The translations under genes and the position numbers were made by a program. A stretch of 64,000 nucleotides of DNA from a virus. The stretch's first letter is position 1; every line of letters starts with the position of its first letter. Where the stretch lies: positions 3,918 through 67,917 of IMG/VR virus record IMGVR_UViG_3300021185_002348, one strand, 5' to 3'. Shown here in pieces: positions 1 to 14,701 of this stretch. Under the pieces are notes generated by a model that did not search any database, had not been told where the DNA came from, and saw only the letters and a list, made by a program, of their open reading frames with translations.

Positions 1-477
1 GAAATCAAGCAAGAGCTTGCAAACAAAAGAGCTGGTAAGAACTTTGCGTCTAGAAAGACCAATACGAAAAAGTTTGCCAAAAAACACAATCTTTATTTGC
101 CGTCAGGCGAAAAATCAATTTATGATGACAATATAGATTGGACAGCCGCTATCAAACAGAAGTATGACACTACCTTCGAGGTATGGTCGGATATTCATTG
201 GAAGAGTAAGAAAGTAAGTACTCGCAATCTGAAAGATATGACAGACGAAGAGTATAAGTCGTACAAAAATGCGGCCAGTAGAAAATGCAGATTTAATGCA
301 CAATTGAAAATCACGGGTGTAAGTTTAGACGACTTTCTTACTCACATATGTGTTAACGAAGCCAAATTTTTCTCAGACGAATATCAAGACGAACATAAAG
401 TTACAAAAGGTAACAAAGTGAGTGTTTACAATCTTGAATATTGGTTAGATACGATCATGGAAATCATGCCTGAATAA
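1..477 (+). CDS. Hypothetical early protein, 5'-truncated by the window edge
   Basis: Frame 1 is open from base 1 (EIKQELANKR...) into the 97..477 ORF, so the true start lies upstream of the window. Confidence 0.7.
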   Translation, partial: EIKQELANKRAGKNFASRKTNTKKFAKKHNLYLPSGEKSIYDDNIDWTAAIKQKYDTTFEVWSDIHWKSKKVSTRNLKDMTDEEYKSYKNAASRKCRFNAQLKITGVSLDDFLTHICVNEAKFFSDEYQDEHKVTKGNKVSVYNLEYWLDTIMEIMPE

Positions 478-560: not shown

Positions 561-1067
561 ATGGAAAAAACAGTTAAAAATTGCACAATTTGCAATCAAG
601 TCGGCCAAAGCCGATGTCCAGAACACGTAGTTGTAGATCATTTCGACCAAAAATTCCACGAGTGGATGTCTTCAGACAATGTAATTAAGCTTGATTCGGA
701 CCAATATACTACACAGTGTACTCAATACACTTGGAAAATGACACAGAATGAACTCGCAAGTTATTTCTACAAAGAATATTATCGGTTAGACTTCCCAGAC
801 AAAGAAGTTCTATTGACTATTCGTCCAGAAAAAATTACGATTAAAAATATATCAACTGGAGAAACAGAAGAAGTAGAATCAGACGGAGGACTCACATCTA
901 TAACTACAGAGGTAGACGAATTCAACAGAAGAGTGGATGAAGATGCCAGAGAGAGTTTATACAATCAATATATACAGGAATATTCTTACGTAGGGGATTT
1001 ACCTATATCGGATGATATGAAACAGAGAATCATAACAGATATGATCGATTGTACGTTACACAGTTAA
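561..1067 (+). CDS. Hypothetical early protein with N-terminal CxxC...CxxH
   Basis: 168-aa ORF, A-rich leader, co-oriented with neighbours. Confidence 0.7.
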   Translation: MEKTVKNCTICNQVGQSRCPEHVVVDHFDQKFHEWMSSDNVIKLDSDQYTTQCTQYTWKMTQNELASYFYKEYYRLDFPDKEVLLTIRPEKITIKNISTGETEEVESDGGLTSITTEVDEFNRRVDEDARESLYNQYIQEYSYVGDLPISDDMKQRIITDMIDCTLHS

Positions 1068-1100
1068 ATTTTAAACAAACATTTTAAACAAACAGAAATT

Positions 1101-1505
1101 ATGTCAGTAAGTATTACATGCGACAATTGTCACAACTTTCTTGGCTACGGCCGAGAACTACCAATAGATGTTCACTGCAGCGAATGCGGTGAGAATACAT
1201 ACAACGATTACGGTTATACGGATGAAGACGAAGGAATCGATAAAGAGGAAGATACAGTTTCACTATCACAACCTGAACCTGCACCGATACACTACATTCC
1301 GAATATGAAAAAACTGCAGATGATCAAGCAGATTTTAAACATGCGGAAAATTAATCTTGAAGCAGATATATACGTCAGTGGAGCATTTCCCGATCTTGTA
1401 GATGAATTAGAAGTCCGGAAAGAACTGTTAGATTATATAAATGTATTAATCGACATCGAACAAGACTATCCGATATTAGGCATACAGAAACTAAACAATA
1501 ATTAA
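1101..1505 (+). CDS. Zinc-ribbon hypothetical protein
   Basis: CDNC...CSEC near the N-terminus. Confidence 0.7.
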   Translation: MSVSITCDNCHNFLGYGRELPIDVHCSECGENTYNDYGYTDEDEGIDKEEDTVSLSQPEPAPIHYIPNMKKLQMIKQILNMRKINLEADIYVSGAFPDLVDELEVRKELLDYINVLIDIEQDYPILGIQKLNNN

Positions 1506-1519
1506 AAAACGATCGAAAA

Positions 1520-1831
1520 ATGGATTTAAATACAATCGAAAAGCAATTGACGGACAAGTCAATCGGAGACATCAGAAAGTGTGCACAAGAAATAGTTAAC
1601 GTATTGAAAGCTTTCTCCGAAGATAAAACAGGCAAAATCAGAAACGGAATACATTGGCCGGTAAACCGCGATTATAATAGTAGAACTGATAGTTACACAT
1701 ACCAATATAGTCATTTGGATTATCATAGATTAGAAAAAATCATTATTGAATCTATACAAAATGATCTGTTGGATGATATAGTCAAAAAGAAAACTACAGA
1801 TTTATTATCAAAGTTAGAGCTATTAGATTAA
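1520..1831 (+). CDS. Hypothetical protein
   Basis: 103-aa ORF followed by a terminator. Confidence 0.7.
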   Translation: MDLNTIEKQLTDKSIGDIRKCAQEIVNVLKAFSEDKTGKIRNGIHWPVNRDYNSRTDSYTYQYSHLDYHRLEKIIIESIQNDLLDDIVKKKTTDLLSKLELLD

Positions 1832-1835
1832 TATT

Positions 1836-1864
1836 AAAAGGCTGATTAAGTTCAGTCTTTTTTT
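1836..1864 (+). terminator. Intrinsic terminator
   Basis: AAAAGGCTGA-TTAAGT-TCAGTCTTTT followed by a T tract. Confidence 0.75.
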
Positions 1865-1925
1865 ATCACAGTCTCGCTATCACAGTCAAAATTTTAGCTG
1901 AGAATTGATCAATTATGACTTAGCT

Positions 1926-1987
1926 AAGTAACTGTATAAATCGGGGAAATTTTAAAATTTTTTTTATTATTTTTATTTATAATTAAT
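1926..1987 (+). promoter_or_regulatory. Early promoter/regulatory element, copy 1
   Basis: AAGTAACTGTATAAATCGGGGA is 20/22 identical to 3502-3523; TATAATTAAT starts 52 bp after the start of both copies. Confidence 0.6.
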
Positions 1988-1998
1988 TAATCACAGAC

Positions 1999-2262
1999 AT
2001 GAAACAAACAGAAATTACCATCCCGAAGTGTTGCGCATCTTGCAAAAAGCTCATCCATCCTTTACGGTTAAAAGTATTACCGCATGCAAATACATGCGTA
2101 AATTGTAGCACGGCTAAACCAGTCGGTTGTGTTCCAATCAACAGCCACAAGACTGGCAATACAATTCAAATATTACCGCATGATATGGCGGCCAGCATGA
2201 ACAAAAATTGCGCACGTTCAGGCTATGGTATCACCCGATCATTACGTGGTAAAAACGGTTAA
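1999..2262 (+). CDS. TraR/DksA-type C4 zinc-finger protein
   Basis: CxxC-x-I-x-P-x-RL-x-x-LP-x-x-x-x-CVNC pattern. Confidence 0.65.
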   Translation: MKQTEITIPKCCASCKKLIHPLRLKVLPHANTCVNCSTAKPVGCVPINSHKTGNTIQILPHDMAASMNKNCARSGYGITRSLRGKNG

Positions 2263-2281
2263 ACTTAAACAATTAGAAATT

Positions 2282-2584
2282 ATGCCAAAACAAAAAACTT
2301 ACAACACACTCGGAATTTTCCTATTAGAAGATTATATGGGAAGCAAACGCAGTTTAATACTACGACTGAATGAAACAAGCGGTTTTATATCATACGTAAT
2401 GTATCAAGGCCATGGAAGCTCAGGCGTAGGTCATTCACTCAGTGGTCTACAGTGTAAAAGTCTACCGTATGAAAAAATATCAGACGACGAAACTATAGAA
2501 GAATTCAAAGCCCGGGTTGCTATCGCAATCCAAGAAGATTCAGTCTTCAAATTTATCAGAGAACGTAAAACAGTTAAATTTTAA
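2282..2584 (+). CDS. Hypothetical protein
   Basis: Track ORF 2225..2584; ATG at 2282 preferred because it avoids overlap and has an A-rich leader. Confidence 0.6.
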   Translation: MPKQKTYNTLGIFLLEDYMGSKRSLILRLNETSGFISYVMYQGHGSSGVGHSLSGLQCKSLPYEKISDDETIEEFKARVAIAIQEDSVFKFIRERKTVKF

Positions 2585-2588
2585 TCAA

Positions 2589-3245
2589 ATGCAAAAGTCA
2601 GTTAAATTAAATCAAAGAGAAGCTACAAACCAAAAGTACTTCAATTCGCAAAAACGATTAGTAAGTCTACTACGTAAAAATACATATGTATATCGCGAGG
2701 AGCTTGAAACAGTTAAAAACATCGGTCAGATACCATGGATGTTTATGATTAACTGCTTGACAGCCAAGCAAGTAGACAACTCGCCTAGCCAAGGCAGAAA
2801 TAAATTAAAGTATTGTTGGAACGGAACTACACCGTCTGTTAAAATTACAGAAGGAATGATACGGGCAATGAGAGCGAACAAAGAAAACCAAACAGTTAAA
2901 CAACCAGAAATTAAAAAGCCAACGAGCATGAAAGAAGTCGCGATCGAAGAACAACAAGCAGCCAACTATGAGCAGCAATTTGAAGAATTAAAGTCGGAAA
3001 TACATGCATTGCGAAATACAGCAAATGGAAACACACTTAATATTACCGACCTTTGGCAATTCGCATACGAACTTGAAGCAACTATTGAAGACAATGATAA
3101 AACTAAACCGTCGTTGCTATCACGCATAAAGTTCCCAGTCCAACGCTTTTGGAACGAAAAACCTTCATTCAGATACTTTGTATATTATTCACTAGCGTGG
3201 ATTACGATCAGTTCTGCAGTATTAATTTATTTTAACAGATTGTAA
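2589..3245 (+). CDS. Hypothetical coiled-coil protein with C-terminal membrane anchor
   Basis: ATG at 2589 follows the upstream stop; hydrophobic tail YFVYYSLAWITISSAVLIYF. Confidence 0.65.
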   Translation: MQKSVKLNQREATNQKYFNSQKRLVSLLRKNTYVYREELETVKNIGQIPWMFMINCLTAKQVDNSPSQGRNKLKYCWNGTTPSVKITEGMIRAMRANKENQTVKQPEIKKPTSMKEVAIEEQQAANYEQQFEELKSEIHALRNTANGNTLNITDLWQFAYELEATIEDNDKTKPSLLSRIKFPVQRFWNEKPSFRYFVYYSLAWITISSAVLIYFNRL

Positions 3246-3246
3246 G

Positions 3247-3462
3247 ATGAATAAGGACACTCAACTACAACTTACGGAGCTACACATGGCTCAAATCAAA
3301 GCCCTGCAGAATAAATGTACGGAGCTACAGTCGAAAATTGATCAAGTAGCAATTTTAATAGACCGTTCTAAACTATATAAACCACGTACAAGAGAGCAGT
3401 CTAGCGATATTCTTACCGATATATTTTATAGCTGGAAAGAAATATATGAGACTAACGATTGA
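3247..3462 (+). CDS. Hypothetical protein
   Basis: 71-aa ORF closely following the upstream gene. Confidence 0.55.
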   Translation: MNKDTQLQLTELHMAQIKALQNKCTELQSKIDQVAILIDRSKLYKPRTREQSSDILTDIFYSWKEIYETND

Positions 3463-3501
3463 AATAAACATGCGAAATATTGTTAATAAATTGACGCGGC
3501 A

Positions 3502-3563
3502 AAGTAACTGTACTAATCGGGGATTTTTATTAACATTATTTTGTATATTTATATATAATTAAT
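3502..3563 (+). promoter_or_regulatory. Early promoter/regulatory element, copy 2
   Basis: AAGTAACTGTACTAATCGGGGA, then TATATTTA at 3544-3551 and TATAATTAAT at 3554-3563. Confidence 0.6.
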
Positions 3564-3582
3564 AACCACAGAAAACAAACAA

Positions 3583-4422
3583 ATGGAAACACAATCCTAT
3601 TTAAACGTTAGCAACGCTAATTCAATCGAGCAGTTATATACTGTGGGTGGTCGTGCAGACTACCAATCAAAGAAAGAATATCTTATAAAGAAACGTGCGT
3701 CAAAACGCTATCACGACCTGCTTAAAGCAGCCAAAAAAGCGAACATTACGGCCTCGCAATATGCAATTAACAACCACGATTGCACAATTGACGAATACTG
3801 TGGCTCAGAATATATTCAGTCAAAAGTATTTCAAGGCTTTTCACCCAGCTTGACTAACGATCAAATTAAAATACTTAAGAAAGTCAACAGCCAAGTATCA
3901 AACAGTTTGCCGTTTTACATGAAAATGAAGCACATGCATGTAATTATACAAGCAGCTTTATACAATTGTACCGATACGCCTTATTCAAGTATATATTATA
4001 AAACAGCGGATATGTCAAGCCGCAGAGACGTTTACGAATCTAACAAAGTTAAGTCCTTGGTTTGCAATAAAGTAGGCACGGAAAATTACTTCAACAATTT
4101 ATATTACTGCATTAGCAACGATAAATATGTCAACATAGTAGACTACATATCTAAGCATATAGAATTTACCGCAGCTACTATCACAGAAATGATCAACAAT
4201 GAGAATGTGGTAATTGACTTTAACGAGCCAAACTACAAAAAGCTTACTGACCGTAAATTTACATACGCTGAAATATTTAACAACGTATTTACTGTTGACG
4301 ACAACACAAGCGAAAGCTTATTCCAAAATAACTACCTGTATAACACGGCAGTTGATAAAACATATGAATACTTTAATGGCTTGGAAGTGCCAGCAAACTT
4401 CTACAATTCAATTAATTATTAA
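3583..4422 (+). CDS. Divergent amidoligase-like protein
   Basis: HDCTI..GSEY, KHMHV and KYVN..HIEF align in order with DGSI.GAEY, GVHVHI and RY..LN..TIEFR of ORF 5614. Confidence 0.5.
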   Translation: METQSYLNVSNANSIEQLYTVGGRADYQSKKEYLIKKRASKRYHDLLKAAKKANITASQYAINNHDCTIDEYCGSEYIQSKVFQGFSPSLTNDQIKILKKVNSQVSNSLPFYMKMKHMHVIIQAALYNCTDTPYSSIYYKTADMSSRRDVYESNKVKSLVCNKVGTENYFNNLYYCISNDKYVNIVDYISKHIEFTAATITEMINNENVVIDFNEPNYKKLTDRKFTYAEIFNNVFTVDDNTSESLFQNNYLYNTAVDKTYEYFNGLEVPANFYNSINY

Positions 4423-4443: not shown

Positions 4444-5433
4444 ATGTGTGGATTAATCGGTTACTCGGGCGAACAATCGCCAAACTTATTTTACTTAAAT
4501 TTCATTTTAGCGGATAATGATTCGCGTGGCGGTCACTCGTCGGGTATAATGATCGGCAATCATACTGAGAAATGCATCGGTAAAAGTGCCAATCTTCTTC
4601 CTATAATGAATAAATTTCAAACAAATCAACAGTTTGTCGCTATCGCACATACGCGTTACGCAACCCACGGCAAGCAAACAGCTAATAACAGTCATCCTTT
4701 TAAATACGGAAAGATTATTGGCGCTCACAACGGTGTATTAAGCAATTATGAAGAAGTGTGTGAAACATACAATCTTAAAACGCCTGATGTGGATTCTAAA
4801 GCTATATTCTCTTTGCTTAATTCAAAGAAAGATTATACTATGCTTGATCGCTTTGACGGCACTATGGCTGTATTATTTACCGACGGTGACGACAATCTTT
4901 ATGTCTACCGTAAAAACAATCCTTTATTTATTGCAAAAGTAGATGGCGGTGTGTATTTCTCATCCCTTCGAGCATCATTAGATATTATATCGGATGATGT
5001 ATCTGAAGTTGCTACTGGCGAATTACAATGCTGGCATAAAGGCAAGTGTATATCTACTGTTAAAATTACTCCCAATCCGATCGCTGCAAAAAAAGTTGTC
5101 AATACAGATTGGTCAGCTTACGGTAAAACGACTAAATCAACTAAAAGTTATAACCACTGGGGTTCGTATGGCTGGGATGATTACAGTACAAAACAAACGC
5201 CAACTACTAATACATATGATATAAACCAATATACATCAGAGCCCGGCACTCGCGGTGAAATATTAGATATGGCTGATTGTATTGACGATGTTGTATGGGA
5301 AGACAGAAACATACTGTCTAACGAACAGACTAAGCTACTAGAAAAAGCAGCCGATATATTACGCTATGATGTTACAAGCTTCTATAAAGAAATATTAGAA
5401 GATGAAGTAGACGACCAAACATTACCATTTTAA
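4444..5433 (+). CDS. Class II glutamine amidotransferase (Ntn hydrolase)
   Basis: MCGLIG N-terminal Cys, RGxxSSG, HTRYATHG, NSHPF, HNG, VDS. Confidence 0.93.
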   Translation: MCGLIGYSGEQSPNLFYLNFILADNDSRGGHSSGIMIGNHTEKCIGKSANLLPIMNKFQTNQQFVAIAHTRYATHGKQTANNSHPFKYGKIIGAHNGVLSNYEEVCETYNLKTPDVDSKAIFSLLNSKKDYTMLDRFDGTMAVLFTDGDDNLYVYRKNNPLFIAKVDGGVYFSSLRASLDIISDDVSEVATGELQCWHKGKCISTVKITPNPIAAKKVVNTDWSAYGKTTKSTKSYNHWGSYGWDDYSTKQTPTTNTYDINQYTSEPGTRGEILDMADCIDDVVWEDRNILSNEQTKLLEKAADILRYDVTSFYKEILEDEVDDQTLPF

Positions 5434-5443
5434 TAAACAGACC

Positions 5444-5617
5444 ATGAAAACAAACTATTCAAAACTGCTTAATAATATATTATTGGAAGCAGACAGTCAA
5501 TTTGTAATTGATTTAGAAAAATCATTTGATACTTTACGCGAACGTAAAGATGTTGACGGCAAACTTATATCAGAAATGATCAACTGTATTAACCAACTTA
5601 AAAAATTCATACAATGA
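5444..5617 (+). CDS. Small hypothetical protein (57 aa, not in ORF track)
   Basis: MKTNYSKLL...KKFIQ; stop overlaps the ATG of 5614 (ATGA). Confidence 0.6.
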   Translation: MKTNYSKLLNNILLEADSQFVIDLEKSFDTLRERKDVDGKLISEMINCINQLKKFIQ

Positions 5618-7380
5618 GCAATTTGACCCAACCTATAAGTTTGCAAGCATTTGCAGACAAAATGCGTGACGCAATAAATATCGCTAGCGAGGCTGATGAA
5701 AATATACGGCTAGATCATTACGTTGCTATCGCACAGGATATTACTTCTTTAATAAACAGTCGATTTGAAACACGTAATACAAGCTTCCATGTTGAAGATG
5801 AATCACGGATAATTAACCGCCGTACGTATAATTCGTTGTTATCCGCTATATATAGTATACGTAGATTATTAGACAGAGCATCAACAAATGACGATAATCT
5901 TGCTAATATATACAAGCAGCTTACTATACCGATCGTTTCTGATAAAGAAGAAGACGAGTTTAAATTTGAACAAGTCAAAATATGTGGCGGATTAACTTCT
6001 ACATTTTATACAAATGGCTATATACTTTCAGAAGATGAATTTGAAAAAGTAGGTTCTGATTGCACACGCTTTTTTCACAGAGATTCAGAATACGCCGATT
6101 ACGCATATTGTGAAGACTTAGACGAATATCATCTTGCTGAAGATACAATGTATTTAGAATTATATGACCACTATGTACATTATCAAAATTCTGATATAGT
6201 TGAAACGCACGACGGACAACAAATATACCAGAATGACGCAGTAATGGTACACGACCGCAACTTTGATGAAGTTTACATTCATGAAGACACCGATCATATA
6301 TATACAAACGACTATAGATATTTAAACGAAGAAGCTGCCGAGGCAAACGGCTGTTGGTATGACGACAATTATGATGAATGGCGTGAAGATCACGAAAGAA
6401 CCGACGATCTGTACTTTAGCAATCCTTTTGCTGCGTCAGAAATGCGCAGATATAAACAATCGCTATCACAAATAGAATATACAGCTCTTGAACATACTCT
6501 AGGTATTACCTCTATAACAAACAGGCAATTCAACGGTATGAAATACACGTTTGGCGTTGAAATCGAAACGCATAACATCAGTAATAATTTTGATGCCGCA
6601 AGTCTAAAGTTAAACGTAGCATCTGTAAGCGATGGTTCAATAAGCGGTGCCGAATATGTTACCGGTCCTATGACTGGCGATACCGGCCTGAACAACGTCA
6701 AATCGCTATGCAAAACATTAAACGCAAAAGGCGCCACCATAAATAACAAATGCGGTGTTCATGTACATATTGGCGGTGCGCAATTTAATCGCCGATTTCA
6801 AATACTGTCTATAATGTTAGGTATGCAAATTCAAGATGAAATGTTTGCCATGCAGCCTGAATCACGCCAAAGTAATACTTACTGCAAAGGTATTCCAGAG
6901 AAATATTTAATGCTAAAGAATTGCTTTAAGCTTGACAACAACAATCGTAAACAATCTTTAAAGTATTTGCATGAATATGTAACAAATAGCTCACGCGAGT
7001 TTAATCAAGACCGCAATAAAAAACGATCGCATCCTAACGGTCACTATTGCAGCTCTCGTTATAAATGGCTAAACTTAAACAATTGTGCTTTTTCTAGCGG
7101 CCCTGAAACTATTGAATTTCGCTTACAAAGTGGTACAACAGAATTTGACAAAATTAAATACTTTGTGCAAATTTGTATGGCCTTTGTTAATTTTGTAGAA
7201 AATAAAAGTCGTAGAATACACATCGGCTTACAACACCATTATGACTACAAAAAGCGTAACACAATGGTTTTAGGCAATTCAGTATCACTGCGAGAAGTAA
7301 TTGAATATTCATATTCAACCGATCAAGCAACTGAAATTATTAATTATGTTAAATTGCGTACCGATAAATTCCTAAAATAA
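5614..7380 (+). CDS. Putative amidoligase (COOH-NH2 ligase) with acidic/aromatic N-terminal region
   Basis: FGVEIE, DGS..GAEYV, CGVHVHIG, RYKWLN, TIEFR motifs. Confidence 0.9.
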   Translation: MSNLTQPISLQAFADKMRDAINIASEADENIRLDHYVAIAQDITSLINSRFETRNTSFHVEDESRIINRRTYNSLLSAIYSIRRLLDRASTNDDNLANIYKQLTIPIVSDKEEDEFKFEQVKICGGLTSTFYTNGYILSEDEFEKVGSDCTRFFHRDSEYADYAYCEDLDEYHLAEDTMYLELYDHYVHYQNSDIVETHDGQQIYQNDAVMVHDRNFDEVYIHEDTDHIYTNDYRYLNEEAAEANGCWYDDNYDEWREDHERTDDLYFSNPFAASEMRRYKQSLSQIEYTALEHTLGITSITNRQFNGMKYTFGVEIETHNISNNFDAASLKLNVASVSDGSISGAEYVTGPMTGDTGLNNVKSLCKTLNAKGATINNKCGVHVHIGGAQFNRRFQILSIMLGMQIQDEMFAMQPESRQSNTYCKGIPEKYLMLKNCFKLDNNNRKQSLKYLHEYVTNSSREFNQDRNKKRSHPNGHYCSSRYKWLNLNNCAFSSGPETIEFRLQSGTTEFDKIKYFVQICMAFVNFVENKSRRIHIGLQHHYDYKKRNTMVLGNSVSLREVIEYSYSTDQATEIINYVKLRTDKFLK

Positions 7381-7526
7381 TGAACAGCTGTCTTGCTTGG
7401 CTCATTATACTTATTACATGCATTGGCTTCTTATACGTCTGCGCTATCGCAGGTCGTATAATGCCAGTCATTGCAGGTTATTTTATTATATTAGCAATCA
7501 TTTCTAATCCTCACAAAGAACAATGA
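7380..7526 (+). CDS. Small two-helix membrane protein (48 aa, not in ORF track)
   Basis: MNSCLAWLIILITCIGFLYVCAIAGRIMPVIAGYFIILAIIS...; translationally coupled at both ends. Confidence 0.6.
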   Translation: MNSCLAWLIILITCIGFLYVCAIAGRIMPVIAGYFIILAIISNPHKEQ

Positions 7527-8341
7527 CAAACTACGAAAAAGAATATTCTGAACTATTACGTGATATATTGCGTAAGCCTGAAGTACCTTATAAAGACAAC
7601 CGCACTGAATCACGGACTATGATGTCTTTTGGTAAAAGCATTACTGCCAACTTGGCTGAAGGCTTTCCCGTATTATCAGGCAGAAAAATGTTTCCAAAAA
7701 CTTTCTTCACCGAGCTTAAATGGTTCACTAATGGCGAAACAAACATACAAAGGTTTAAAGACGCTGGTGTTAAGATATGGAACAAATGGGCTGATAAAAA
7801 CGGCGACTTAGGTCCTGTGTATGGTCATCAACTTCGTAATTTTAACGGAAATGATCAATTACTTAATGTTTTAACCTTATTAAGCACAGACCCAACTAGC
7901 AGGCGTATGGTTGTAAACTTATGGAACCCGTCTGATTTGCCTGACATGGCTTTACCGCCTTGCTATCACACATTCACTTTCTCAGTTGTAAATGATCGGC
8001 TGAATATTGATGTAACAATGCGATCATGCGATGTATTTGTAGGTTTGCCTTACGATATGGCTATGTTTTCAGCTATGAACCACTTGATGTGCGAAGGCTT
8101 TAACTTATCTCCGGGTAAAGTTCGAATAAATATGACAGATGCTCATGTCTATTGGGATAACGTTTCGTCTGCTAATGCTTATATAGAATCAATTGACTTA
8201 GCTATACATACAAAACTTAAGTTTGATATACCTAAGCTATATGTTAAAAACCGTAAAAACATTCTAAACTTTGAACCAGAAGATTTAGAACTTAAAAATT
8301 ACTCTCCAAACAGTCATATTAAAGTCGAAGTTGTACTTTAA
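7523..8341 (+). CDS. thyA: Thymidylate synthase-family enzyme with dCMP-type specificity residues
   Basis: DLGPVYG, SRR, ALPPC, RSCD and HVY motifs; Asp at the E. coli Asn177 position (GLPYD). Confidence 0.9.
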   Translation: MTNYEKEYSELLRDILRKPEVPYKDNRTESRTMMSFGKSITANLAEGFPVLSGRKMFPKTFFTELKWFTNGETNIQRFKDAGVKIWNKWADKNGDLGPVYGHQLRNFNGNDQLLNVLTLLSTDPTSRRMVVNLWNPSDLPDMALPPCYHTFTFSVVNDRLNIDVTMRSCDVFVGLPYDMAMFSAMNHLMCEGFNLSPGKVRINMTDAHVYWDNVSSANAYIESIDLAIHTKLKFDIPKLYVKNRKNILNFEPEDLELKNYSPNSHIKVEVVL

Positions 8342-8346
8342 TTTGC

Positions 8347-8354
8347 TATATTTG
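8347..8354 (+). promoter_or_regulatory. Bacteroidota sigma70 -7 element TATATTTG
   Basis: Matches TAnnTTTG; intergenic. Confidence 0.65.
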
Positions 8355-8359
8355 TAAAT

Positions 8360-8425
8360 ATATGTTTTGAAATAGCCGGTAATAGGGTTTCTGTTTGTCC
8401 CGTGGTTAGTTACCGGTTATTTTTT
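8360..8425 (+). ncRNA. Candidate small RNA or terminator-like leader hairpin
   Basis: 13-bp stem 8370-8382/8410-8422, inner GGG/CCC hairpin, T tract; immediately downstream of a promoter motif. Confidence 0.45.
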
Positions 8426-8453
8426 ACTTTAATAAAATTTAATCAACATAACT

Positions 8454-8738
8454 ATGTCAAAAAAATCACTGCTTCAAATTGCGGATGAAATTACTTCAAA
8501 CAAAAGTACAGAAAAGAACAAATACGGCTCTTTTCAACAAAACTTCGAAGACTCCGCCACTATCGCAAGCATACTTACCAACAAAAATATAACGCCAGAT
8601 ATTGCAAATGCAGTATTAATTGGCCTTAAAATTGCTCGATTAAGAAACGGCTACCACGAAGACAGCTTTCTTGATCTACATGCATATATAGCAGCCTTCG
8701 AAATTAATAACCCAAAGTCAAATAAAAACAAAATCTAA
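8454..8738 (+). CDS. DUF6378/Nmad1-like small helical protein
   Basis: YG....NF...A......LK.AR......DS..D...Y pattern. Confidence 0.7.
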   Translation: MSKKSLLQIADEITSNKSTEKNKYGSFQQNFEDSATIASILTNKNITPDIANAVLIGLKIARLRNGYHEDSFLDLHAYIAAFEINNPKSNKNKI

Positions 8739-9007
8739 TGGACGTAAAAATCAAAAAGTTTAAAGACCGAATACCCGGTCAGCAAAAATCAAAGCAAGAC
8801 TATACAAACCGTGTAGTAATATTTGAAGACATAACAGGTAAAGAATGGATTTGTAATCTTGACAGTCGCACAGAGCAGACTAATTACATTGAAAATAATT
8901 TAACCATAGGTGCTTGCTTCGCTGGTTTTAGAAAGCAAAGTGAAACTCACGTAAAGTTAAAGTCGCCTATATCACTTATTTATAACCCTCAATTGAAGCT
9001 ACTATGA
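8738..9007 (+). CDS. Hypothetical protein
   Basis: 89-aa ORF, translationally coupled. Confidence 0.65.
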   Translation: MDVKIKKFKDRIPGQQKSKQDYTNRVVIFEDITGKEWICNLDSRTEQTNYIENNLTIGACFAGFRKQSETHVKLKSPISLIYNPQLKLL

Positions 9008-9357
9008 TAAACGAATTCAAGTACAACGAAAAAGTTAAAACTCCTTACGGTACGTTTTCTAGTTTAGATGTAGATGAAATAGGCGTAGCTCAGGATTATG
9101 ATGCAAGCTATTCTGATTTAGATGTATTTGCAATTATTGATGATACAGTTTATTTCTTTATTATGGCTATACCTACTGATTATAACATGGCCCATGTAGA
9201 CGAATGGGATTATGCACGGGAAAGCCATAGGACTTCAAAAATATTGTACGAAGACTTAACTACAGATCAATGGGTTAGAGAGTCAATTGACAACCTTGAC
9301 GTAATTGATTTACTATTAACTCACAAAAAAATACACACTCAAAAATTAGAACAGTAA
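9004..9357 (+). CDS. Hypothetical acidic protein
   Basis: 117-aa ORF, ATGA overlap. Confidence 0.65.
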   Translation: MINEFKYNEKVKTPYGTFSSLDVDEIGVAQDYDASYSDLDVFAIIDDTVYFFIMAIPTDYNMAHVDEWDYARESHRTSKILYEDLTTDQWVRESIDNLDVIDLLLTHKKIHTQKLEQ

Positions 9358-9482
9358 TGTGGAACTATATACTTAACTACGGCGAATCAGACTGCTGTGG
9401 AGCCCCTGTGTGGGAAAATCAAGACATCTGCCAAAAGTGCAAAGAGCACTGCGGTGTAATATATGAAGAAGACGAAGAATGA
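9357..9482 (+). CDS. Small zinc-ribbon protein (41 aa, not in ORF track)
   Basis: SDCCGAPV...DICQKCKEHC; coupled to both neighbours. Confidence 0.7.
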   Translation: MWNYILNYGESDCCGAPVWENQDICQKCKEHCGVIYEEDEE

Positions 9483-9913
9483 AATTTGCTAAAACAAAAA
9501 ATGTATTGACGCCTACGAGAGCAAACGCTAATGACGCAGGCATAGACTTTTATATACCCTGGGACCGCACGGCTGAATTAGTCTACCCAAATGATCAATG
9601 TATAATTGATACAGGTATTAAAGTAGATGTGCCACCAGGATACGCCTTAGTAGCTTTTAACAAGTCAGGAATAGCAACGAAGAAACGTTTATTAGTCGGT
9701 GCATGCGTAGTTGACGCAGGTTATCAAGGCACGATCAATATCAACCTTCATAATGTTGGCACAGAAAAGCAGTTGCTATCACCGGGAGATAAGATTATAC
9801 AATTTTTACTTTTGCCGCTTGGGCCATCGGAACTTACGGAGGTACCACAAGAAGATTTGTACACAAATGAATCTGACAGAGGCGAAGGCAAGTTTGGTAG
9901 CACAGGAAATTAA
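9479..9913 (+). CDS. dut: Trimeric dUTPase
   Basis: DAGIDF, KSG, VVDAGYQG, RGEGKFGSTG motifs. Confidence 0.95.
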   Translation: MKFAKTKNVLTPTRANANDAGIDFYIPWDRTAELVYPNDQCIIDTGIKVDVPPGYALVAFNKSGIATKKRLLVGACVVDAGYQGTININLHNVGTEKQLLSPGDKIIQFLLLPLGPSELTEVPQEDLYTNESDRGEGKFGSTGN

Positions 9914-9963
9914 AATTACTGTGAAATCAATTTTTTATTAACAACTTATTTAGTAAATTTACA

Positions 9964-10362
9964 ATGATTAAAGAAGACGAAACTTACAAGCACTACCAGA
10001 TAAGGCAATTTGAAAATAAAGTTATTGCTTTACAAACTGAGTTAGACGTTGTCGATGTAATTAAAGAACAAGTAGCCAATTATTTTAGATTAGCACCACA
10101 TAATCTAAGTAAGAAAACCAGATTAAGAACATATTTATGGCCAAGACAAATAGCTATATACTTCACAAGAGAATATACAACATTTACTTTAAAAGAAATA
10201 GCTAAAATGTTCGGGTTAGTAAACCATGCAACTATAATACATTCAGTTAAAGTTGTAGCAAACGACATGGCTCTTGACAAAAGAAAACAAAATCAATTAA
10301 ATCAAATCAAACTTAACCTACTAAAAAATGGAATCGAAGACAACCCAGCCGAAAGAGACTAA
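9964..10362 (+). CDS. Stand-alone DnaA domain IV (DNA-binding HTH) protein
   Basis: RQIAIYF.RE.T..TLKEIA.MFG..NHATIIHS signature. Confidence 0.85.
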   Translation: MIKEDETYKHYQIRQFENKVIALQTELDVVDVIKEQVANYFRLAPHNLSKKTRLRTYLWPRQIAIYFTREYTTFTLKEIAKMFGLVNHATIIHSVKVVANDMALDKRKQNQLNQIKLNLLKNGIEDNPAERD

Positions 10363-10765
10363 AAAAGACGCTTTACGAAGATTATTTTTAGACAATAATT
10401 TATCTGAAGACGACGTATACAAAGACAAACGTGGCTTTGTAATCATTACCAGATCGGGTATTGAGAAAATTCAGTTTAACAACAATATGAACATTGAATT
10501 TAAGTTAGAAATATCTAATGACGATTTAATAGTAGTTAAAGCTTGTGCCGAAATGCGCACGGGCGAAGGTCAAGCATTTAAAGTAGAAACTTATGGCGAA
10601 TGCAGCCCTAAAAACTATCAAAACTATACTTCTAAATTTGGTAGTTATCCTTTTGCTATGGCCGAAAAGCGAGCACTATCACGGGCCGTACTTAAACTTG
10701 CTGGTTTTTACAGACTAGGTGGTGTGTTTGGTGAAGGCGAAATTGATAACAGAAGCGATAAATAA
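10328..10765 (+). CDS. Putative ssDNA-annealing/recombination protein
   Basis: AMAEKRA.SRAVLK motif and position near the SSB-like gene. Confidence 0.5.
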   Translation: MESKTTQPKETKKDALRRLFLDNNLSEDDVYKDKRGFVIITRSGIEKIQFNNNMNIEFKLEISNDDLIVVKACAEMRTGEGQAFKVETYGECSPKNYQNYTSKFGSYPFAMAEKRALSRAVLKLAGFYRLGGVFGEGEIDNRSDK

Positions 10766-10768
10766 GCT

Positions 10769-11017
10769 ATGGAATTTGATTGGATAGACGAATTATTAGA
10801 TAATTCAGAAGCTGAAGCAGAAATGTGGCAATTAGATACTATTGACAATTTAATTAGATCAACATCTATAGGTGAACAATTGAGTCTAGTAATTGAAAGA
10901 GAGTCTATAAACTATACAAAGAAAGAAGCTTTTAAAATTATTTCATATTTGAAACGAAATCAAACTTATCCGGATTGCAGAGACAGATTTAAATTTTATA
11001 ACAACAAAAACAATTAA
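10769..11017 (+). CDS. Hypothetical protein
   Basis: 82-aa ORF in operon. Confidence 0.65.
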   Translation: MEFDWIDELLDNSEAEAEMWQLDTIDNLIRSTSIGEQLSLVIERESINYTKKEAFKIISYLKRNQTYPDCRDRFKFYNNKNN

Positions 11018-11019
11018 AA

Positions 11020-11373
11020 ATGAGCGAAACGCTAAAAACAGACGGTAAATTACTAGGAGTAAATGCTGTTGAACAAATTACAGACAAGTTTAAAAAACGT
11101 AAATTTTGGGTTGAAACAGACTCTGAGTCACAATGGCCACAAGTTATTGAATTTGAATTAGTTCAAGATAAAGTTGATCTAATTGATAAATTTAAGAAAG
11201 GTGACGTAATATCTGTTGGCTTTAATTTACGAGGTAGAAGATACACAAGCAAAAAAACAGGGCAAGAAGGTGTTATAAACTCTTTAAACGCCTGGTTTGT
11301 AGACAAGCCTAAGCCTCAAGCTGCTGGTTCAGTTGCTTCTGATACGTCAGATCCTAATGACTTACCATTTTAA
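11020..11373 (+). CDS. DUF3127 family OB-fold SSB-like protein
   Basis: FKKR, PQ.I.FEL.QDK, FNLRGR, NSL.AW and acidic DLPF tail. Confidence 0.85.
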   Translation: MSETLKTDGKLLGVNAVEQITDKFKKRKFWVETDSESQWPQVIEFELVQDKVDLIDKFKKGDVISVGFNLRGRRYTSKKTGQEGVINSLNAWFVDKPKPQAAGSVASDTSDPNDLPF

Positions 11374-11375
11374 TT

Positions 11376-11726
11376 ATGAGTAAGCCTAATGAAACAACAC
11401 ATATAGATTGGATTCAATCGTGTTACAGAGCCGATGCAGTTTATGAATACCCAAAGCTATCTATTGAAGAATGTGAAACAATGGAAGCATGGGTTATTGA
11501 AATGCTAGGCGTATATGAACCAGGCAATGAACAAGTTGATGTAGCAGAGCTGTTATGCAATATGATTAGCATATTTGCTAGTCGTAATCCTAAAGAACAG
11601 CAAGGCATTTTAATATCAGCTTTAAGAAAGTCTGCTGACATTCATGACGAACTTTGGGACTTTGAGAAAGGTAAATTGAAAAAAATTAATAAATTGCTTA
11701 ACTCAAAGAACAAAAAGAAAGATTAA
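11376..11726 (+). CDS. Hypothetical protein
   Basis: 116-aa ORF in operon. Confidence 0.65.
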   Translation: MSKPNETTHIDWIQSCYRADAVYEYPKLSIEECETMEAWVIEMLGVYEPGNEQVDVAELLCNMISIFASRNPKEQQGILISALRKSADIHDELWDFEKGKLKKINKLLNSKNKKKD

Positions 11727-11729
11727 TTT

Positions 11730-11795
11730 TAAATTGTGTCTGGCGAGAGCCGAAAGGAGGTATAAAAAGTTTATGCCAGTTCCTCCCACAATTTA
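11730..11795 (+). ncRNA. Candidate structured RNA (three-way junction, hammerhead-like)
   Basis: Closing stem TAAATTGTG/CACAATTTA enclosing two hairpins and a GAAA junction. Confidence 0.4.
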
Positions 11796-11811
11796 CTTAT
11801 AACCATTTATT

Positions 11812-12477
11812 ATGAAAACAGAAACGAACCAACCATCGTACTATGCTATTATACCTGCAATTGTACGGTACGATCCAAATCTATCTGCTTCTGAAAAATT
11901 ACTATTTGGAGAAATAACTTCCTTATGCAATGCAACTGGAGAATGTTTTGCTTCTAATAAATATTTTGCAAAGCTATACAAAAAAGACAAAGTTACTATC
12001 TCACGCTGGTTTGCTAAGCTTAAAGACGCTGGCTATATACATATAAACTATAAGTATGTACCTGAATCTCAAGCTATTGAATCAAGAATAGTTCACATAT
12101 CGCACCAAGTACCGGGCATTATTACCCCTGCTAGCAAAAATGCTAATAGGCCTACTAGCAAAAACGCTAAAGATAATATTATAAAAAATAATAATGCTCA
12201 AATGCTATTTGAAGCGTGGTGGAATCTATACAATAAAAAGCAAGGCAAGAAGAAATCTTTAACCGTTTGGATGAAGCTATCTGAAGATCAGATGAACAAA
12301 TGTATGTCCGTGGTTGAAGACTTTGTTAGATATAGAAATGAAGTTAAGTATAGGCCTCATCCTCTGACATATTTAAATGGTGAGATGTGGGAAGACGAAA
12401 TTCCTAATCAATCCATAAGTAAAGAGTGGAAGAAACAAGAAGCTACTGATAACTTTAATAACATGTTTGGAATATGA
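11812..12477 (+). CDS. Phage replication initiator/replisome organiser (N-terminal HTH)
   Basis: YYAIIPA.VRYD..L...EKLL.GEIT.L.N..G.CFASN.YFA.LY; C-terminal FE.WW..Y.KK..KK and P.TYLN...W.DE. Confidence 0.85.
   Translation: MKTETNQPSYYAIIPAIVRYDPNLSASEKLLFGEITSLCNATGECFASNKYFAKLYKKDKVTISRWFAKLKDAGYIHINYKYVPESQAIESRIVHISHQVPGIITPASKNANRPTSKNAKDNIIKNNNAQMLFEAWWNLYNKKQGKKKSLTVWMKLSEDQMNKCMSVVEDFVRYRNEVKYRPHPLTYLNGEMWEDEIPNQSISKEWKKQEATDNFNNMFGI
12127..12170 (+). repeat. Two iteron-like direct repeats inside the initiator gene (candidate origin)
   Basis: CCTRCTAGCAAAAAYGCTAA x2 at 24-bp period, followed by an AT-rich stretch. Confidence 0.6.
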
Positions 12478-14297
12478 AAAAAGTATCAATATACAATAAC
12501 ATCAGAAATATTAATGATGGTCATAACATAACTATAGCTACAGCGCTTGATAGGATCAAATCAGGCTCCTCTAAGAAGACTATAGAAGATATTAGAACTC
12601 ATCTATTAGAAGGTGATCAAGCAGCTGCTAAAAAGCTTAAAACGTTTAGTCTACCTTATGTATGTTTTTCAGGAACATTTAGTAAAAGAGATGACAATTC
12701 TATAATAGAGCACTCAGGGTTTGCAATTTTAGATTTTGATCATTTACCAGACAATATTATGCAGTCTTGTAAAGAAGTGTTAATGGGTTGCAATTTTATA
12801 TATTCATTTTGGGTTTCACCATCGGGTGACGGACTTAAAGTACTTGCAAAAATACCCGCTAGTATAGAAGAGCATAAAGATTATTATGTAGGCTTAGTTA
12901 AATATTTTGAAAGATTTGAAGGATATGTAGACGAAACAAGTATAAACTTAAGTCGTGCATGCTTTGAAAGCTACGATCCTGATATATACATTAATGAAGA
13001 CGCAGAAGAGTTTGTAGATAAGTACGTTGAAGAAAAAGCAACAGTTGCTATCACAAACACAATCATACGTACTGACTATGCAAAAGTAAACATAGCGGCT
13101 AATATTATACGCCATTCAATACCAGGCGAGATGCATGCAAAGCTTTTAGATGCATCTAATCTTATGGGTGGCTATATTGCTACAGGCATCGTTGGAGAGG
13201 AAGAAGCTAAAAGAATTTTGCTTGACGAGATTATAGCTAAAGGTAAGAAAGACGACGATCTAAAAGCAGCTGAAATTGCTATACAGAAGGGTATTGACTA
13301 CGGTAAGACAAGACCTTTGTCTGAATTAATAGCGGCTGTAAGCGAAGAAGAGATACTTGAAGGTATATTAACACTTGACAAAGTTAAAAGTCAAATGAAA
13401 TCTAATTTTGAATTTGGTTCAAAGAAAGGTGAAGATACCGGTATACCGCATGTAGACAAAGTATTTAAGTGGATGAAAGGCTTTACATATGTATTTGCTG
13501 GTTATGCAAACCACGGTAAAAGTGAGTTTCTTAACTACATTATGCTTATGAAGAGTTTAAAGTCTGGTTATAAATGGGCTGTATTTACGCCAGAGGGCCA
13601 TACTGCAGACACTTTTTATGACAATTTAATACATATGTATACAGGTCAGACAACTGATCATAGAAGCGACAATCAAGTATCTAAAGAAAGATATTGGGAA
13701 GCAGCTGAGTTTATTAAAAAGCATTTCTTTTACATATATCCTAAGAAAGAGCACTCTGCTGAAAACATAAATGCAATATTCAAATATTTAGTAGACCACG
13801 AAGGTGTAGATGGCTGTGTCATAGATCCATACAATCAATTGTCGTTTGATTCAACAGGTACTGAATACTTGCAGATAAGAAACTTCTTGCAAGCACAAAG
13901 AAGATTTTATATAGAAAATAATGTAGTAGGTGTAATTGTAGCTCACCCTAAAAATCCTAATCCAAACGATAATGGAAGCATAGATCCACCGCAAGTCTAC
14001 CAAATATCCGGTGGTGCTGAGTGGAATAACAAGTCAGATGTTATTATGACATACCATAGACCTAACTTCTATGTAGACATCGGCGACACTTCTTGCATAT
14101 TCGGCACTAAGAAAATGAAGCGTCAAAAAGATATGGCCTTGCCCGGAGATATAGATATGAAGTTTGATCGGCGAACTAATAGATTCTTATTTTTCGATCC
14201 TTCAGTATCACAATCTTTTATAGATTACATAGAAGTACATCATCAGTCAAACAATAAAGTAAAACCAAACAATAACCTAGAAAATTTATTCGGATGA
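12474..14297 (+). CDS. Primase-helicase: BT4734/VirE-N AEP-type domain fused to SF4 (DnaB/Twinkle-like) helicase
   Basis: LP...FSGTF..R, HSG...LDFD, SPSGDGLK; Walker A GYANHGKS, IDPYNQL, VAHP, ISG. Confidence 0.88.
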   Translation: MKKVSIYNNIRNINDGHNITIATALDRIKSGSSKKTIEDIRTHLLEGDQAAAKKLKTFSLPYVCFSGTFSKRDDNSIIEHSGFAILDFDHLPDNIMQSCKEVLMGCNFIYSFWVSPSGDGLKVLAKIPASIEEHKDYYVGLVKYFERFEGYVDETSINLSRACFESYDPDIYINEDAEEFVDKYVEEKATVAITNTIIRTDYAKVNIAANIIRHSIPGEMHAKLLDASNLMGGYIATGIVGEEEAKRILLDEIIAKGKKDDDLKAAEIAIQKGIDYGKTRPLSELIAAVSEEEILEGILTLDKVKSQMKSNFEFGSKKGEDTGIPHVDKVFKWMKGFTYVFAGYANHGKSEFLNYIMLMKSLKSGYKWAVFTPEGHTADTFYDNLIHMYTGQTTDHRSDNQVSKERYWEAAEFIKKHFFYIYPKKEHSAENINAIFKYLVDHEGVDGCVIDPYNQLSFDSTGTEYLQIRNFLQAQRRFYIENNVVGVIVAHPKNPNPNDNGSIDPPQVYQISGGAEWNNKSDVIMTYHRPNFYVDIGDTSCIFGTKKMKRQKDMALPGDIDMKFDRRTNRFLFFDPSVSQSFIDYIEVHHQSNNKVKPNNNLENLFG

Positions 14298-14701
14298 AAA
14301 AGAAAACAGAAAAAGAATTAGTATTTGTATACGGAACATTAATGGCTGGATACCACAACCATTACTATTTAGAAACATCTAAGTGGGTAGACTATGCAAA
14401 AACAGTTAAAGACTACTCATTATTTGAGTCAGGTATACCTTTTGTATATGAAGATTTAAACATTACCGCTATCACCGGCGAAGTATATGAAGTCAGTAAA
14501 AGTGTTATGTATTATTTAGATATGCTTGAAGGTCACCCGGATGCATACGAAAGAAAGCAAGTAGATGTAAAATTAGGTTTTACAAACGAAGTAGTAAAAG
14601 CATGGATATATTTCTATCCTAGAATAGTAGGTAATTTAATTGAATCAGGAAACTATGAAGAAGCTTATCCGAGACGCAAAAATAAAATATCAAATTTGTA
14701 A
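14294..14701 (+). CDS. Gamma-glutamylcyclotransferase (AIG2-like)
   Basis: VFVYGTL..G..NH, GEVYEV, LD.LEG.P..Y.R, AWIY. Confidence 0.92.
   Translation: MKKKTEKELVFVYGTLMAGYHNHYYLETSKWVDYAKTVKDYSLFESGIPFVYEDLNITAITGEVYEVSKSVMYYLDMLEGHPDAYERKQVDVKLGFTNEVVKAWIYFYPRIVGNLIESGNYEEAYPRRKNKISNL

Follow-up and report, generated by a model that had tools for sequence, protein, structure and literature searches.

The sequence analysed here is a 64,000-nucleotide window (bases 3918-67917) of IMG/VR record IMGVR_UViG_3300021185_002348, a viral genome of 67,917 bp that CheckV scores as 100% complete. Our subject is the homologue of the thymidylate synthase ThyA encoded by the open reading frame (ORF) at 7523..8341, which shares its block with genes for a DUF6378 protein and a dUTPase. 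From its active-site residues, their conservation among relatives and published work on homologues, we propose, with a probability of roughly 60%, that this enzyme is a C5-methyltransferase of deoxycytidine monophosphate (dCMP) that feeds 5-methylcytosine (5mC) into the phage DNA, and that the DNA probably holds 5mC. Enzymes of this kind and their diagnostic residues have been published and are known from other phages.

The ORF aligns with nearly the whole of profile PF00303 (residues 6-271 on profile positions 1-265 of 266, E = 1.2e-73) and matches phrog_160 (E = 9e-83). It aligns over its full length with E. coli ThyA (PDB 1an5 and the K-12 gene), with which it shares 35% identity, the fold, the catalytic residues and the C-terminal tail. 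As the preliminary description of this DNA had reported, the motif ALPPCYH (residues 143-149, containing Cys147-Tyr148) and the motif MRSCDVFVGLPYD (residues 166-178, containing Met166 and Asp178) are present; in the alignment, 'malppcyh' falls on 'malapcha' and MRSCDVFVGLPYD on QRSCDVFLGLPFN. The T4 gp42 motif with which that description had compared them was also found, as MRSND...RND at the aligned columns of the T4 record. In E. coli numbering, which is used below unless query residues are named (query Trp89, Leu144, Asp170 and Asp178 are Trp83, Leu143, Asp169 and position 177), the query differs from E. coli ThyA by His147 to Tyr, Gln165 to Met, Phe176 to Tyr and Asn177 to Asp, natural substitutions that are conserved in its clade. 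Unchanged are Arg21, Glu58, Trp80, Trp83, Val93, Tyr94, Arg126/127, Leu143, Cys146, Arg166, Ser167, Asp169, His207 and Tyr209. Among these we take Cys146 to be catalytic, Arg166/Ser167 and Arg126/127 to bind phosphate as in ThyA, and Glu58 and Tyr94 to be functional as well. The signature of the ORF is thus W83 V93 L143 C146 Y147 M165 D169 Y176 D177, followed by a tail of the same length as that of E. coli ThyA, IKVEVVL lying on IKAPVAI and aligned to the last residues.

An AlphaFold2 model computed from 11 clade sequences (mean predicted local distance difference test score, pLDDT, 84.3) finds as its top PDB matches canonical thymidylate synthases, to which the predicted fold appears similar at a template-modelling (TM) score of about 0.8. 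Purifying selection on the gene is indicated by a ratio of nonsynonymous to synonymous substitution rates (dN/dS) of 0.13 in comparison with a 79%-identical relative, although with dS at 1.2 the estimate is partly saturated. In NCBIfam the protein exceeds the cut-off of TIGR03284 (205.3 vs 108.35) and falls below those of the other seven of eight thymidylate-synthase models, for example NF002497 (232.6 vs 327).

Published work supplies rules by which these residues can be read. In a set of 433 homologues from phages, the top differential conservation between cytosine-modified and unmodified contigs fell on positions 177 and 147, and Asp177 was found mostly on the modified ones (PMC8670742). 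Mutagenesis cited in PMC8670742 and PMC13326640 shifts the preference from deoxyuridine monophosphate (dUMP) to dCMP by changing Asn177 to Asp. In a further study, seven deaminase-linked metagenome homologues were all predicted from position 177 to make 5-methyl-dCMP, and five of the seven yielded 5-methyldeoxycytidine (5mdC) in E. coli with T4 gp1, as did the enzyme of phage Xp12, the positive control (bioRxiv 10.1101/2024.12.05.627091). Other positions bear on the chemistry at C5. In E. coli thymidylate synthase the tail, together with Trp83 and Leu143, seals the site for hydride transfer and methylation, whereas T4 hydroxymethylase is without the tail and has Val85 and Asp145 in place of Trp83 and Leu143; there Asp145 serves to activate the substrate water, and the D145N mutant has no activity (PMC6400193). 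The hydroxymethylation signature proposed in that paper is Asp/Glu three residues before the catalytic Cys (Cys-3) plus Ser94 and Tyr96, and where E. coli has Val93, hydroxymethylases carry Ser/Thr. L143D/E gives hydroxymethyl products, N177D directs the enzyme to dCMP, and D169N marks flavin-dependent 5-hydroxy-dCMP synthases (PMC13326640).

Read in this way, the query has neither Asn177 nor His147, the residues of canonical dUMP-specific enzymes, but Asp178 and Tyr148, and these point to dCMP as its substrate. It has no acidic residue at Cys-3 and keeps Asp169 and the tail, as expected for reductive chemistry; it shows none of the hydroxymethylase features (Asp/Glu at Cys-3, Ser/Thr at Val93, absence of the tail), and position 169 is Asp, not the Asn of 5-hydroxy-dCMP synthases. 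Leu143, Trp83, Val93, Asp169 and the tail therefore point to reductive methylation and to neither hydroxymethylation nor hydroxylation. The preliminary description had left the product as either 5-methyl- or 5-hydroxymethyl-dCMP; the dCMP and methyl parts of that suggestion are favoured by Asp177, the non-His residue at 147 and the published homologues, while a hydroxymethyl product appears less likely than methyl because the hydroxymethylase signature is absent and the features of a reductive synthase are retained.

How specific these substitutions are was examined among homologues. A HMMER search of 1.84 billion representative sequences returned 13,899 relatives at E <= 0.001, of which the best 150 were taken and 149 representatives (P0167-P0315; 50% identity) were aligned with fast MAFFT settings. 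Position 177 is Asn in 117 of them, Asp in 30 and gapped in two. Tyr147 occurs in 14 of the 149, 13 times with Asp177, once with a gap at 177 and never with Asn177; among the 30 Asp177 representatives, residue 147 is Tyr in 13, His in 11, Pro in five and Asp in one, Pro being the residue of the Xp12 enzyme. Asp or Glu at position 143 was found in none of the 149. Met165, which had also been offered as part of a dCMP signature, does not survive this comparison: it is present in 31 of the 117 Asn177 representatives and is therefore not diagnostic for dCMP. A word-indexed homologue search gave 6018 matches at E <= 1e-10, and the best 120, which were read, all carry Asp177.

The same residues recur in metagenomes. 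From 204 confirmed relatives 80 loci were kept, 76 of them with a complete homologue ORF, and W83, V93, L143, C146, Y147, D169, Y176, D177 and the tail are present in 76 of 76, with Gln (70) or Met (6) at position 165. The closest cluster (11 members, 98% identity) lies on contigs of up to 68.8 kb; a pattern scan of IMG/VR added only three loci, all distant. Given the conservation of Asp177 among the best homologues and of both residues in all 76 metagenome ORFs, together with a dN/dS of 0.13, the Tyr147 and Asp177 substitutions are not due to chance.

The six loci with Met165 and the 70 with Gln165 differ in context. The three Met165 loci with enough flanking sequence (L019, L021 and L022) are syntenic with the window. 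The upstream half (glutamine amidotransferase, amidoligase, ThyA homologue, DUF6378, two small ORFs) is found in L021, and the downstream half (ThyA homologue, DUF6378, two small ORFs, dUTPase, replication genes) in L019 and L022. Within L019 and L022 the primase-helicase is 85-88% identical to that of the window while the ThyA homologue is only 53-54% identical. Over window positions 7523..14297 the dUTPase reaches 54-64% and the ORF at 10328..10765 reaches 81-87%, so that among syntenic relatives the ThyA homologue and the dUTPase have diverged much further than the primase-helicase and that ORF. The usual cassette of the Gln165 family is a small ORF, the homologue, and a protein of 240-300 residues bearing a MazG/PRA-PH domain at its C terminus (loci L025-L097; for example L026:9748-11567 and L072:4154-5954). 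Pfam detected this domain in five of five loci scanned (79 of 191 ORFs, from five of 11 sister loci), and a hidden Markov model built from the five proteins matched in 62 of 76 loci, adjoining the homologue in 61; of the 14 loci without such a protein, six are those with Met165 and the other eight lie mostly on short contigs. A MazG/PRA-PH neighbour in the sister family is the co-occurrence given for modified contigs in PMC8670742, where the thymidylate-synthase domain accompanies PRA-PH and deaminase domains. The Gln165 cassette is very common in marine and freshwater phages, and near it, in the loci scanned, lie genes for ribonucleotide reductase, ERF and a Toprim-DnaB primase-helicase. Four relatives are on contigs binned in metagenome-assembled genomes of Bacteroidetes.

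The preliminary description had suggested placing the enzyme in a phylogeny with ThyA, T4 gp42 and Xp12-type methylases. Our tree (FastTree, LG+gamma, midpoint rooted) has 171 rows, comprising the query, 10 clade members, six near homologues, six references and 148 of the 149 representatives, the fragment P0220 having been dropped. It bears out an affinity with Asp177 enzymes: the query clade (11 tips, support 0.999) is uniformly Tyr147/Met165/Asp177, its sister is the Gln165/Tyr147/Asp177 family (19 tips jointly, support 0.867), and the enclosing clade of 34 tips (support 0.824) contains 32 Asp177 sequences, one Asn177 and one gapped. It does not bear out an affinity with the known cytosine enzymes, since the query clade and canonical ThyA share a group of 164 tips to which Xp12, T4 gp42, RB69 gp48 and the SP8 dUMP hydroxymethylase do not belong. 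Asp177 is also scattered through the canonical part of the tree and therefore arose more than once. The ThyA homologue belongs to a well-supported clade of homologues from phages of Bacteroidota. Identity to the query is 35% for E. coli ThyA, 32% for RB69 td, 29% for Xp12, 25% for SP8, 23% for T4 gp42 and, over about 100 residues, 27% for RB69 gp48. Among GenBank phages we found no protein more than 38% identical to it and no near-identical DNA.

A functional precedent is the Xp12 enzyme (MT664984, coding sequence 45326..46195, minus strand), a 5-methyl-dCMP synthase from a phage whose cytosine is fully replaced by 5mC. Like the query it has Asp177 after Tyr176 (PYD), a residue other than His at 147, Asp169, Phe51 and Lys82, together with a C-terminal tail whose end, E-V-I-E, resembles the E-V-V-L/E of the query clade, and the same reaction is predicted for both. 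Unlike the query it has Pro147, Leu165 and Asn143 and lies on a separate branch; its gene neighbours encode a dCMP deaminase and a protein annotated as dihydrofolate reductase, whereas the query genome has no deaminase match. With the Asp177 homologues from MetaGPA (PMC8670742; bioRxiv 10.1101/2024.12.05.627091) the query shares, by published positions alone, the diagnostic residues at 177 and 147; its lineage differs from them in having Met165 and in being without MazG and deaminase partners, although the sister family has MazG/PRA-PH.

Gene content was assessed by six-frame profile searches of the whole record, which found no PF00383 deaminase, PF03819 MazG, DNA polymerase A or B, or C5 DNA methylase, and by scanning most ORFs of 90 residues or more against Pfam and PHROG, which found no PRA-PH, kinase, dihydrofolate reductase, glycosyltransferase or carbamoyltransferase; these family-library scans covered the window, and the ORFs of the 3.9 kb outside it were read by eye. 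The sole Walker A motif in the genome is that of the primase-helicase, and neither a kinase for deoxynucleoside monophosphates (dNMPs) nor a dCTPase was found in the complete 67.9-kb genome. What had been remarked earlier of the window, the lack of a visible dNMP kinase and DNA polymerase, also applies to all 67,917 bp. The genome is 65% A+T and has no second thymidylate synthase. Its replication set consists of a BT4734-type primase-helicase, a DnaA-C-like protein, a DUF3127 single-strand-binding protein and a replication initiator, and no transfer RNA genes are present in the window. The closest terminases are those of a spring-water podovirus (46%) and of Flavobacterium, Cellulophaga and Tenacibaculum phages (about 40%), on which grounds this marine phage most likely infects a member of the Flavobacteriia. 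The isolates closest to it in terminase, an Elemovirus and the spring-water podovirus, have no PF00303 gene and so offer no comparison.

From these observations we infer the substrate, the product, the fate of the product and a possible anti-restriction role. By analogy with thymidylate synthase, the catalytic Cys147 of the query would attack C6 of dCMP, while Asp178, in place of the uracil-selecting Asn, would bind the N3/N4 face of cytosine. A one-carbon unit from methylene-tetrahydrofolate would be added at C5, and because Leu144, Trp89 and the full C-terminal tail would seal the site, the folate would then donate hydride, yielding a methyl group and dihydrofolate. Since the phage has no dNMP kinase, dCTPase, deaminase or DNA polymerase of its own, host kinases and the host replicase would be needed to carry 5-methyl-dCMP into phage DNA, and without a dCTPase the replacement of cytosine by 5mC may be incomplete. 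More tentatively, this could be the barest pre-replicative cytosine-methylation pathway yet seen, in which a lone dCMP methylase relies on host kinases and replicase to load 5mC, perhaps partly, with a dUTPase, and possibly DUF6378, in the place of MazG.

Several observations weigh against this proposal. The genome is without the accessory genes usual for full cytosine replacement (MazG/PRA-PH, deaminase, polymerase, C5 methylase). The query does not group with the Xp12 enzyme, as common descent would have it, and is nearer to E. coli ThyA than to Xp12 or T4 gp42. In our alignment the Xp12 methylase carries Asn at 143, and the Leu143 rule is therefore a correlation only. The hexamer GATATC, of which 13.7 copies are expected under a maximal-order Markov model, does not occur in the genome at all, and no other of the 2293 hexamers expected at least 10 times is missing. 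L019, L021 and L022 (24.8 kb jointly) likewise lack it, and sister-family loci have it in one to seven copies. This suggests a host restriction system specific for GATATC, and argues that the DNA is still exposed to at least one cytosine-containing restriction specificity that modification has not escaped. Digestion by EcoRV-HF is complete for the 5-hydroxymethylcytosine (5hmC) DNA of T4gt and very partial for glucosylated T4 DNA; Xp12, having no GATATC site, gives no EcoRV readout for 5mC (PMC7653180). As a test of modification, restriction-site statistics, in which only GATATC stands out, do not discriminate between the readings.

The explanation that survives best beside dCMP methylation, though we consider it unlikely, is an ordinary synthase of thymidine monophosphate (dTMP) acting on dUMP from the neighbouring dUTPase, with Asp177 and Tyr147 as tolerated variants of the lineage. 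It would account for the full thymidylate-synthase architecture, with all checked catalytic and folate-binding residues and the tail, for the score above TIGR03284 (205 vs 108) and for a model that resembles canonical enzymes. Such an enzyme classically has a dUTPase for partner, and one is encoded 1.1 kb downstream in this gene block, which also counts against dCMP methylation; the lack of a dCTPase, kinase and deaminase and an A+T-rich genome with no other thymidylate synthase fit as well. Moreover, two of the seven Asp177 homologues gave no 5mdC (bioRxiv 10.1101/2024.12.05.627091), a result that tells against dCMP methylation too. What speaks against dTMP synthesis is the switch from dUMP to dCMP preference upon Asn177 to Asp (cited in PMC8670742 and PMC13326640), the occurrence of Asp177 in all 76 metagenome relatives, the failure of Tyr147 to coexist with Asn177 in any of the 149 representatives, and the scores under seven of eight NCBIfam cut-offs.

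Rather improbable is that 5-methyl-dCMP is made mainly as a route to thymidylate through host deamination and not for 5mC in DNA. Deoxythymidine triphosphate by deamination of 5-methyl-dCTP is proposed for Xp12-like phages (bioRxiv 10.1101/2024.12.05.627091), and such a route would suit an A+T-rich genome with no other thymidylate synthase, in which full cytosine replacement is unlikely without a dCTPase; the published route, however, uses a phage-encoded deaminase, and PF00383 is absent here.

A dCMP hydroxymethylase like T4 gp42, whose 5-hydroxymethyl-dCMP might be further decorated, has a slim chance. Asp177 and Met165 (MRS.D ... D) are common to the query and gp42, and the Asn143 of Xp12 shows that position 143 is no absolute rule. 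Yet the query has Leu at Cys-3 instead of Asp/Glu, a position at which D145N abolishes T4 activity (PMC6400193), retains Trp83 and the full tail, and has Val, not Ser/Thr, before Tyr94; gp42 has Asp at Cys-3, Val at Trp83, Ser before Tyr and no tail, shares 23% identity and lies outside the query's part of the tree, and the family scans, which took in most ORFs of 90 residues or more, found no glycosyl- or carbamoyltransferase. A flavin-dependent 5-hydroxy-dCMP synthase like RB69 gp48, which has Asp177 and Met165 in common with the query, is very improbable, because gp48 carries the diagnostic D169N, Glu instead of Leu at 143, no tail and only 27% identity over about 100 residues.

The genes around the homologue, with other features of the window, are listed in Table 1.

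Table 1. Selected features of the window, in window coordinates.
Feature	Position	Strand	Match or occurrence
Class-II glutamine amidotransferase	4444..5433	+	also in L021
588-aa protein, C-terminal Amidoligase_2 domain	5614..7380	+	also in L021, L022
ThyA-family enzyme, 272 aa; predicted dCMP C5-methyltransferase (5-methyl-dCMP synthase)	7523..8341	+	PF00303, residue alignment
DUF6378 protein, 94 aa, predicted four-helix	8454..8738	+	PF19905, E 7.6e-11
Trimeric-type dUTPase, 144 aa	9479..9913	+	PF00692, E 7e-16
Gamma-glutamyl cyclotransferase (GGACT)	14294..14701	+	also in L019
Giant ORF, 3113 aa, virion module of podovirus-like genome	19010..28351	-	
Giant ORF, 1848 aa, virion module of podovirus-like genome	31085..36631	-	

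The DUF6378 and dUTPase genes that the preliminary description had noted near the homologue are both there, but what it made of them stands less well. Its 'Nmad1-like' label for the DUF6378 protein is not supported, as hmmscan gave no DUF1599/Nmad match at E up to 10 and PF19905 only. Of 60 small neighbours, 13 match DUF6378 in hmmsearch, and the protein adjoins the homologue in 13 metagenome loci belonging to two phage lineages; from this adjacency alone a tie between the two proteins may be supposed; the small upstream ORFs of 39 sister loci, considered as DUF6378 candidates, belong to a different family by hmmsearch and clustering. The AlphaFold2 model of the protein has four helices (pLDDT 73.5). 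Foldseek against the PDB found nothing at E <= 0.001 (best E 1.5), the best Z from VIA-align against 48,161 chains was 4.6, in a range common for helical models, and ESM Atlas returned only DUF6378 clusters. A single complex-prediction job with the ThyA homologue returned 'no answer' (score 0.00, mark 0.32), which leans neither way on binding. DUF6378 is also not supported as a marker of modification: of 477 GenBank phage records with relatives, 472 are Mycobacterium phages, and in EagleEye (L104), the one record opened, its neighbours are primase, thioredoxin-type and ribonucleotide-reductase genes, with no thymidylate synthase adjoining it. The name 'phosphofructokinase', given to it in some RefSeq records and PHROGs, finds no support in anything we saw.

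The dUTPase aligns over residues 2-143 with solved dUTPases (human dUTPase, E = 9e-18), although its TIGR00576 score of 92.7 bits is under the cut-off of 102.55. A dCTPase role like that of T4 gp56, which the preliminary description had raised, was rejected given the full-length match to solved dUTPases and zero similarity to gp56, and we take the gene to be an ordinary dUTPase, a presumed nucleotide-pool neighbour. DUF6378 and a canonical dUTPase lend no specific support to the dCMP reading.

The amidoligase, the glutamine amidotransferase and the GGACT protein were considered as a hypermodification module and set aside: relatives of the amidoligase are present in 24 phage records from unrelated hosts (Porphyromonas, Cellulophaga, crAss-like, Faecalibacterium), and no link to nucleotide chemistry was found. 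In the 588-residue amidoligase protein the assigned domain is the C-terminal one, and the N-terminal 280 residues have no assignment. At the left genome end, bases 961..4394 hold at least three paralogous ORFs of 153-194 residues with a similar layout and motifs such as ASRKTNYKK; window positions 1..477 contain the end of the last copy, and the paralogues tested have no family match.

We found no characterisation of the query's lineage (Met165, no MazG partner, no polymerase, a flavobacterial podophage) among open-access papers and bioRxiv. As the concept is already published, the gain would lie in breadth and in the minimal gene set and not in a new principle. If our proposal is true, 5mC-substituted DNA extends to podophages of marine Flavobacteriia, and 5mC would also be found in the much larger sister family that is common in marine and freshwater metagenomes. 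This would bear on how these phages escape restriction and meet modification-dependent defences, as well as on the behaviour of metagenomic reads in methylation-sensitive library methods. The lineage would, in addition, test whether a dCMP methylase alone suffices, without a dCTPase, kinase or polymerase of the phage's own.

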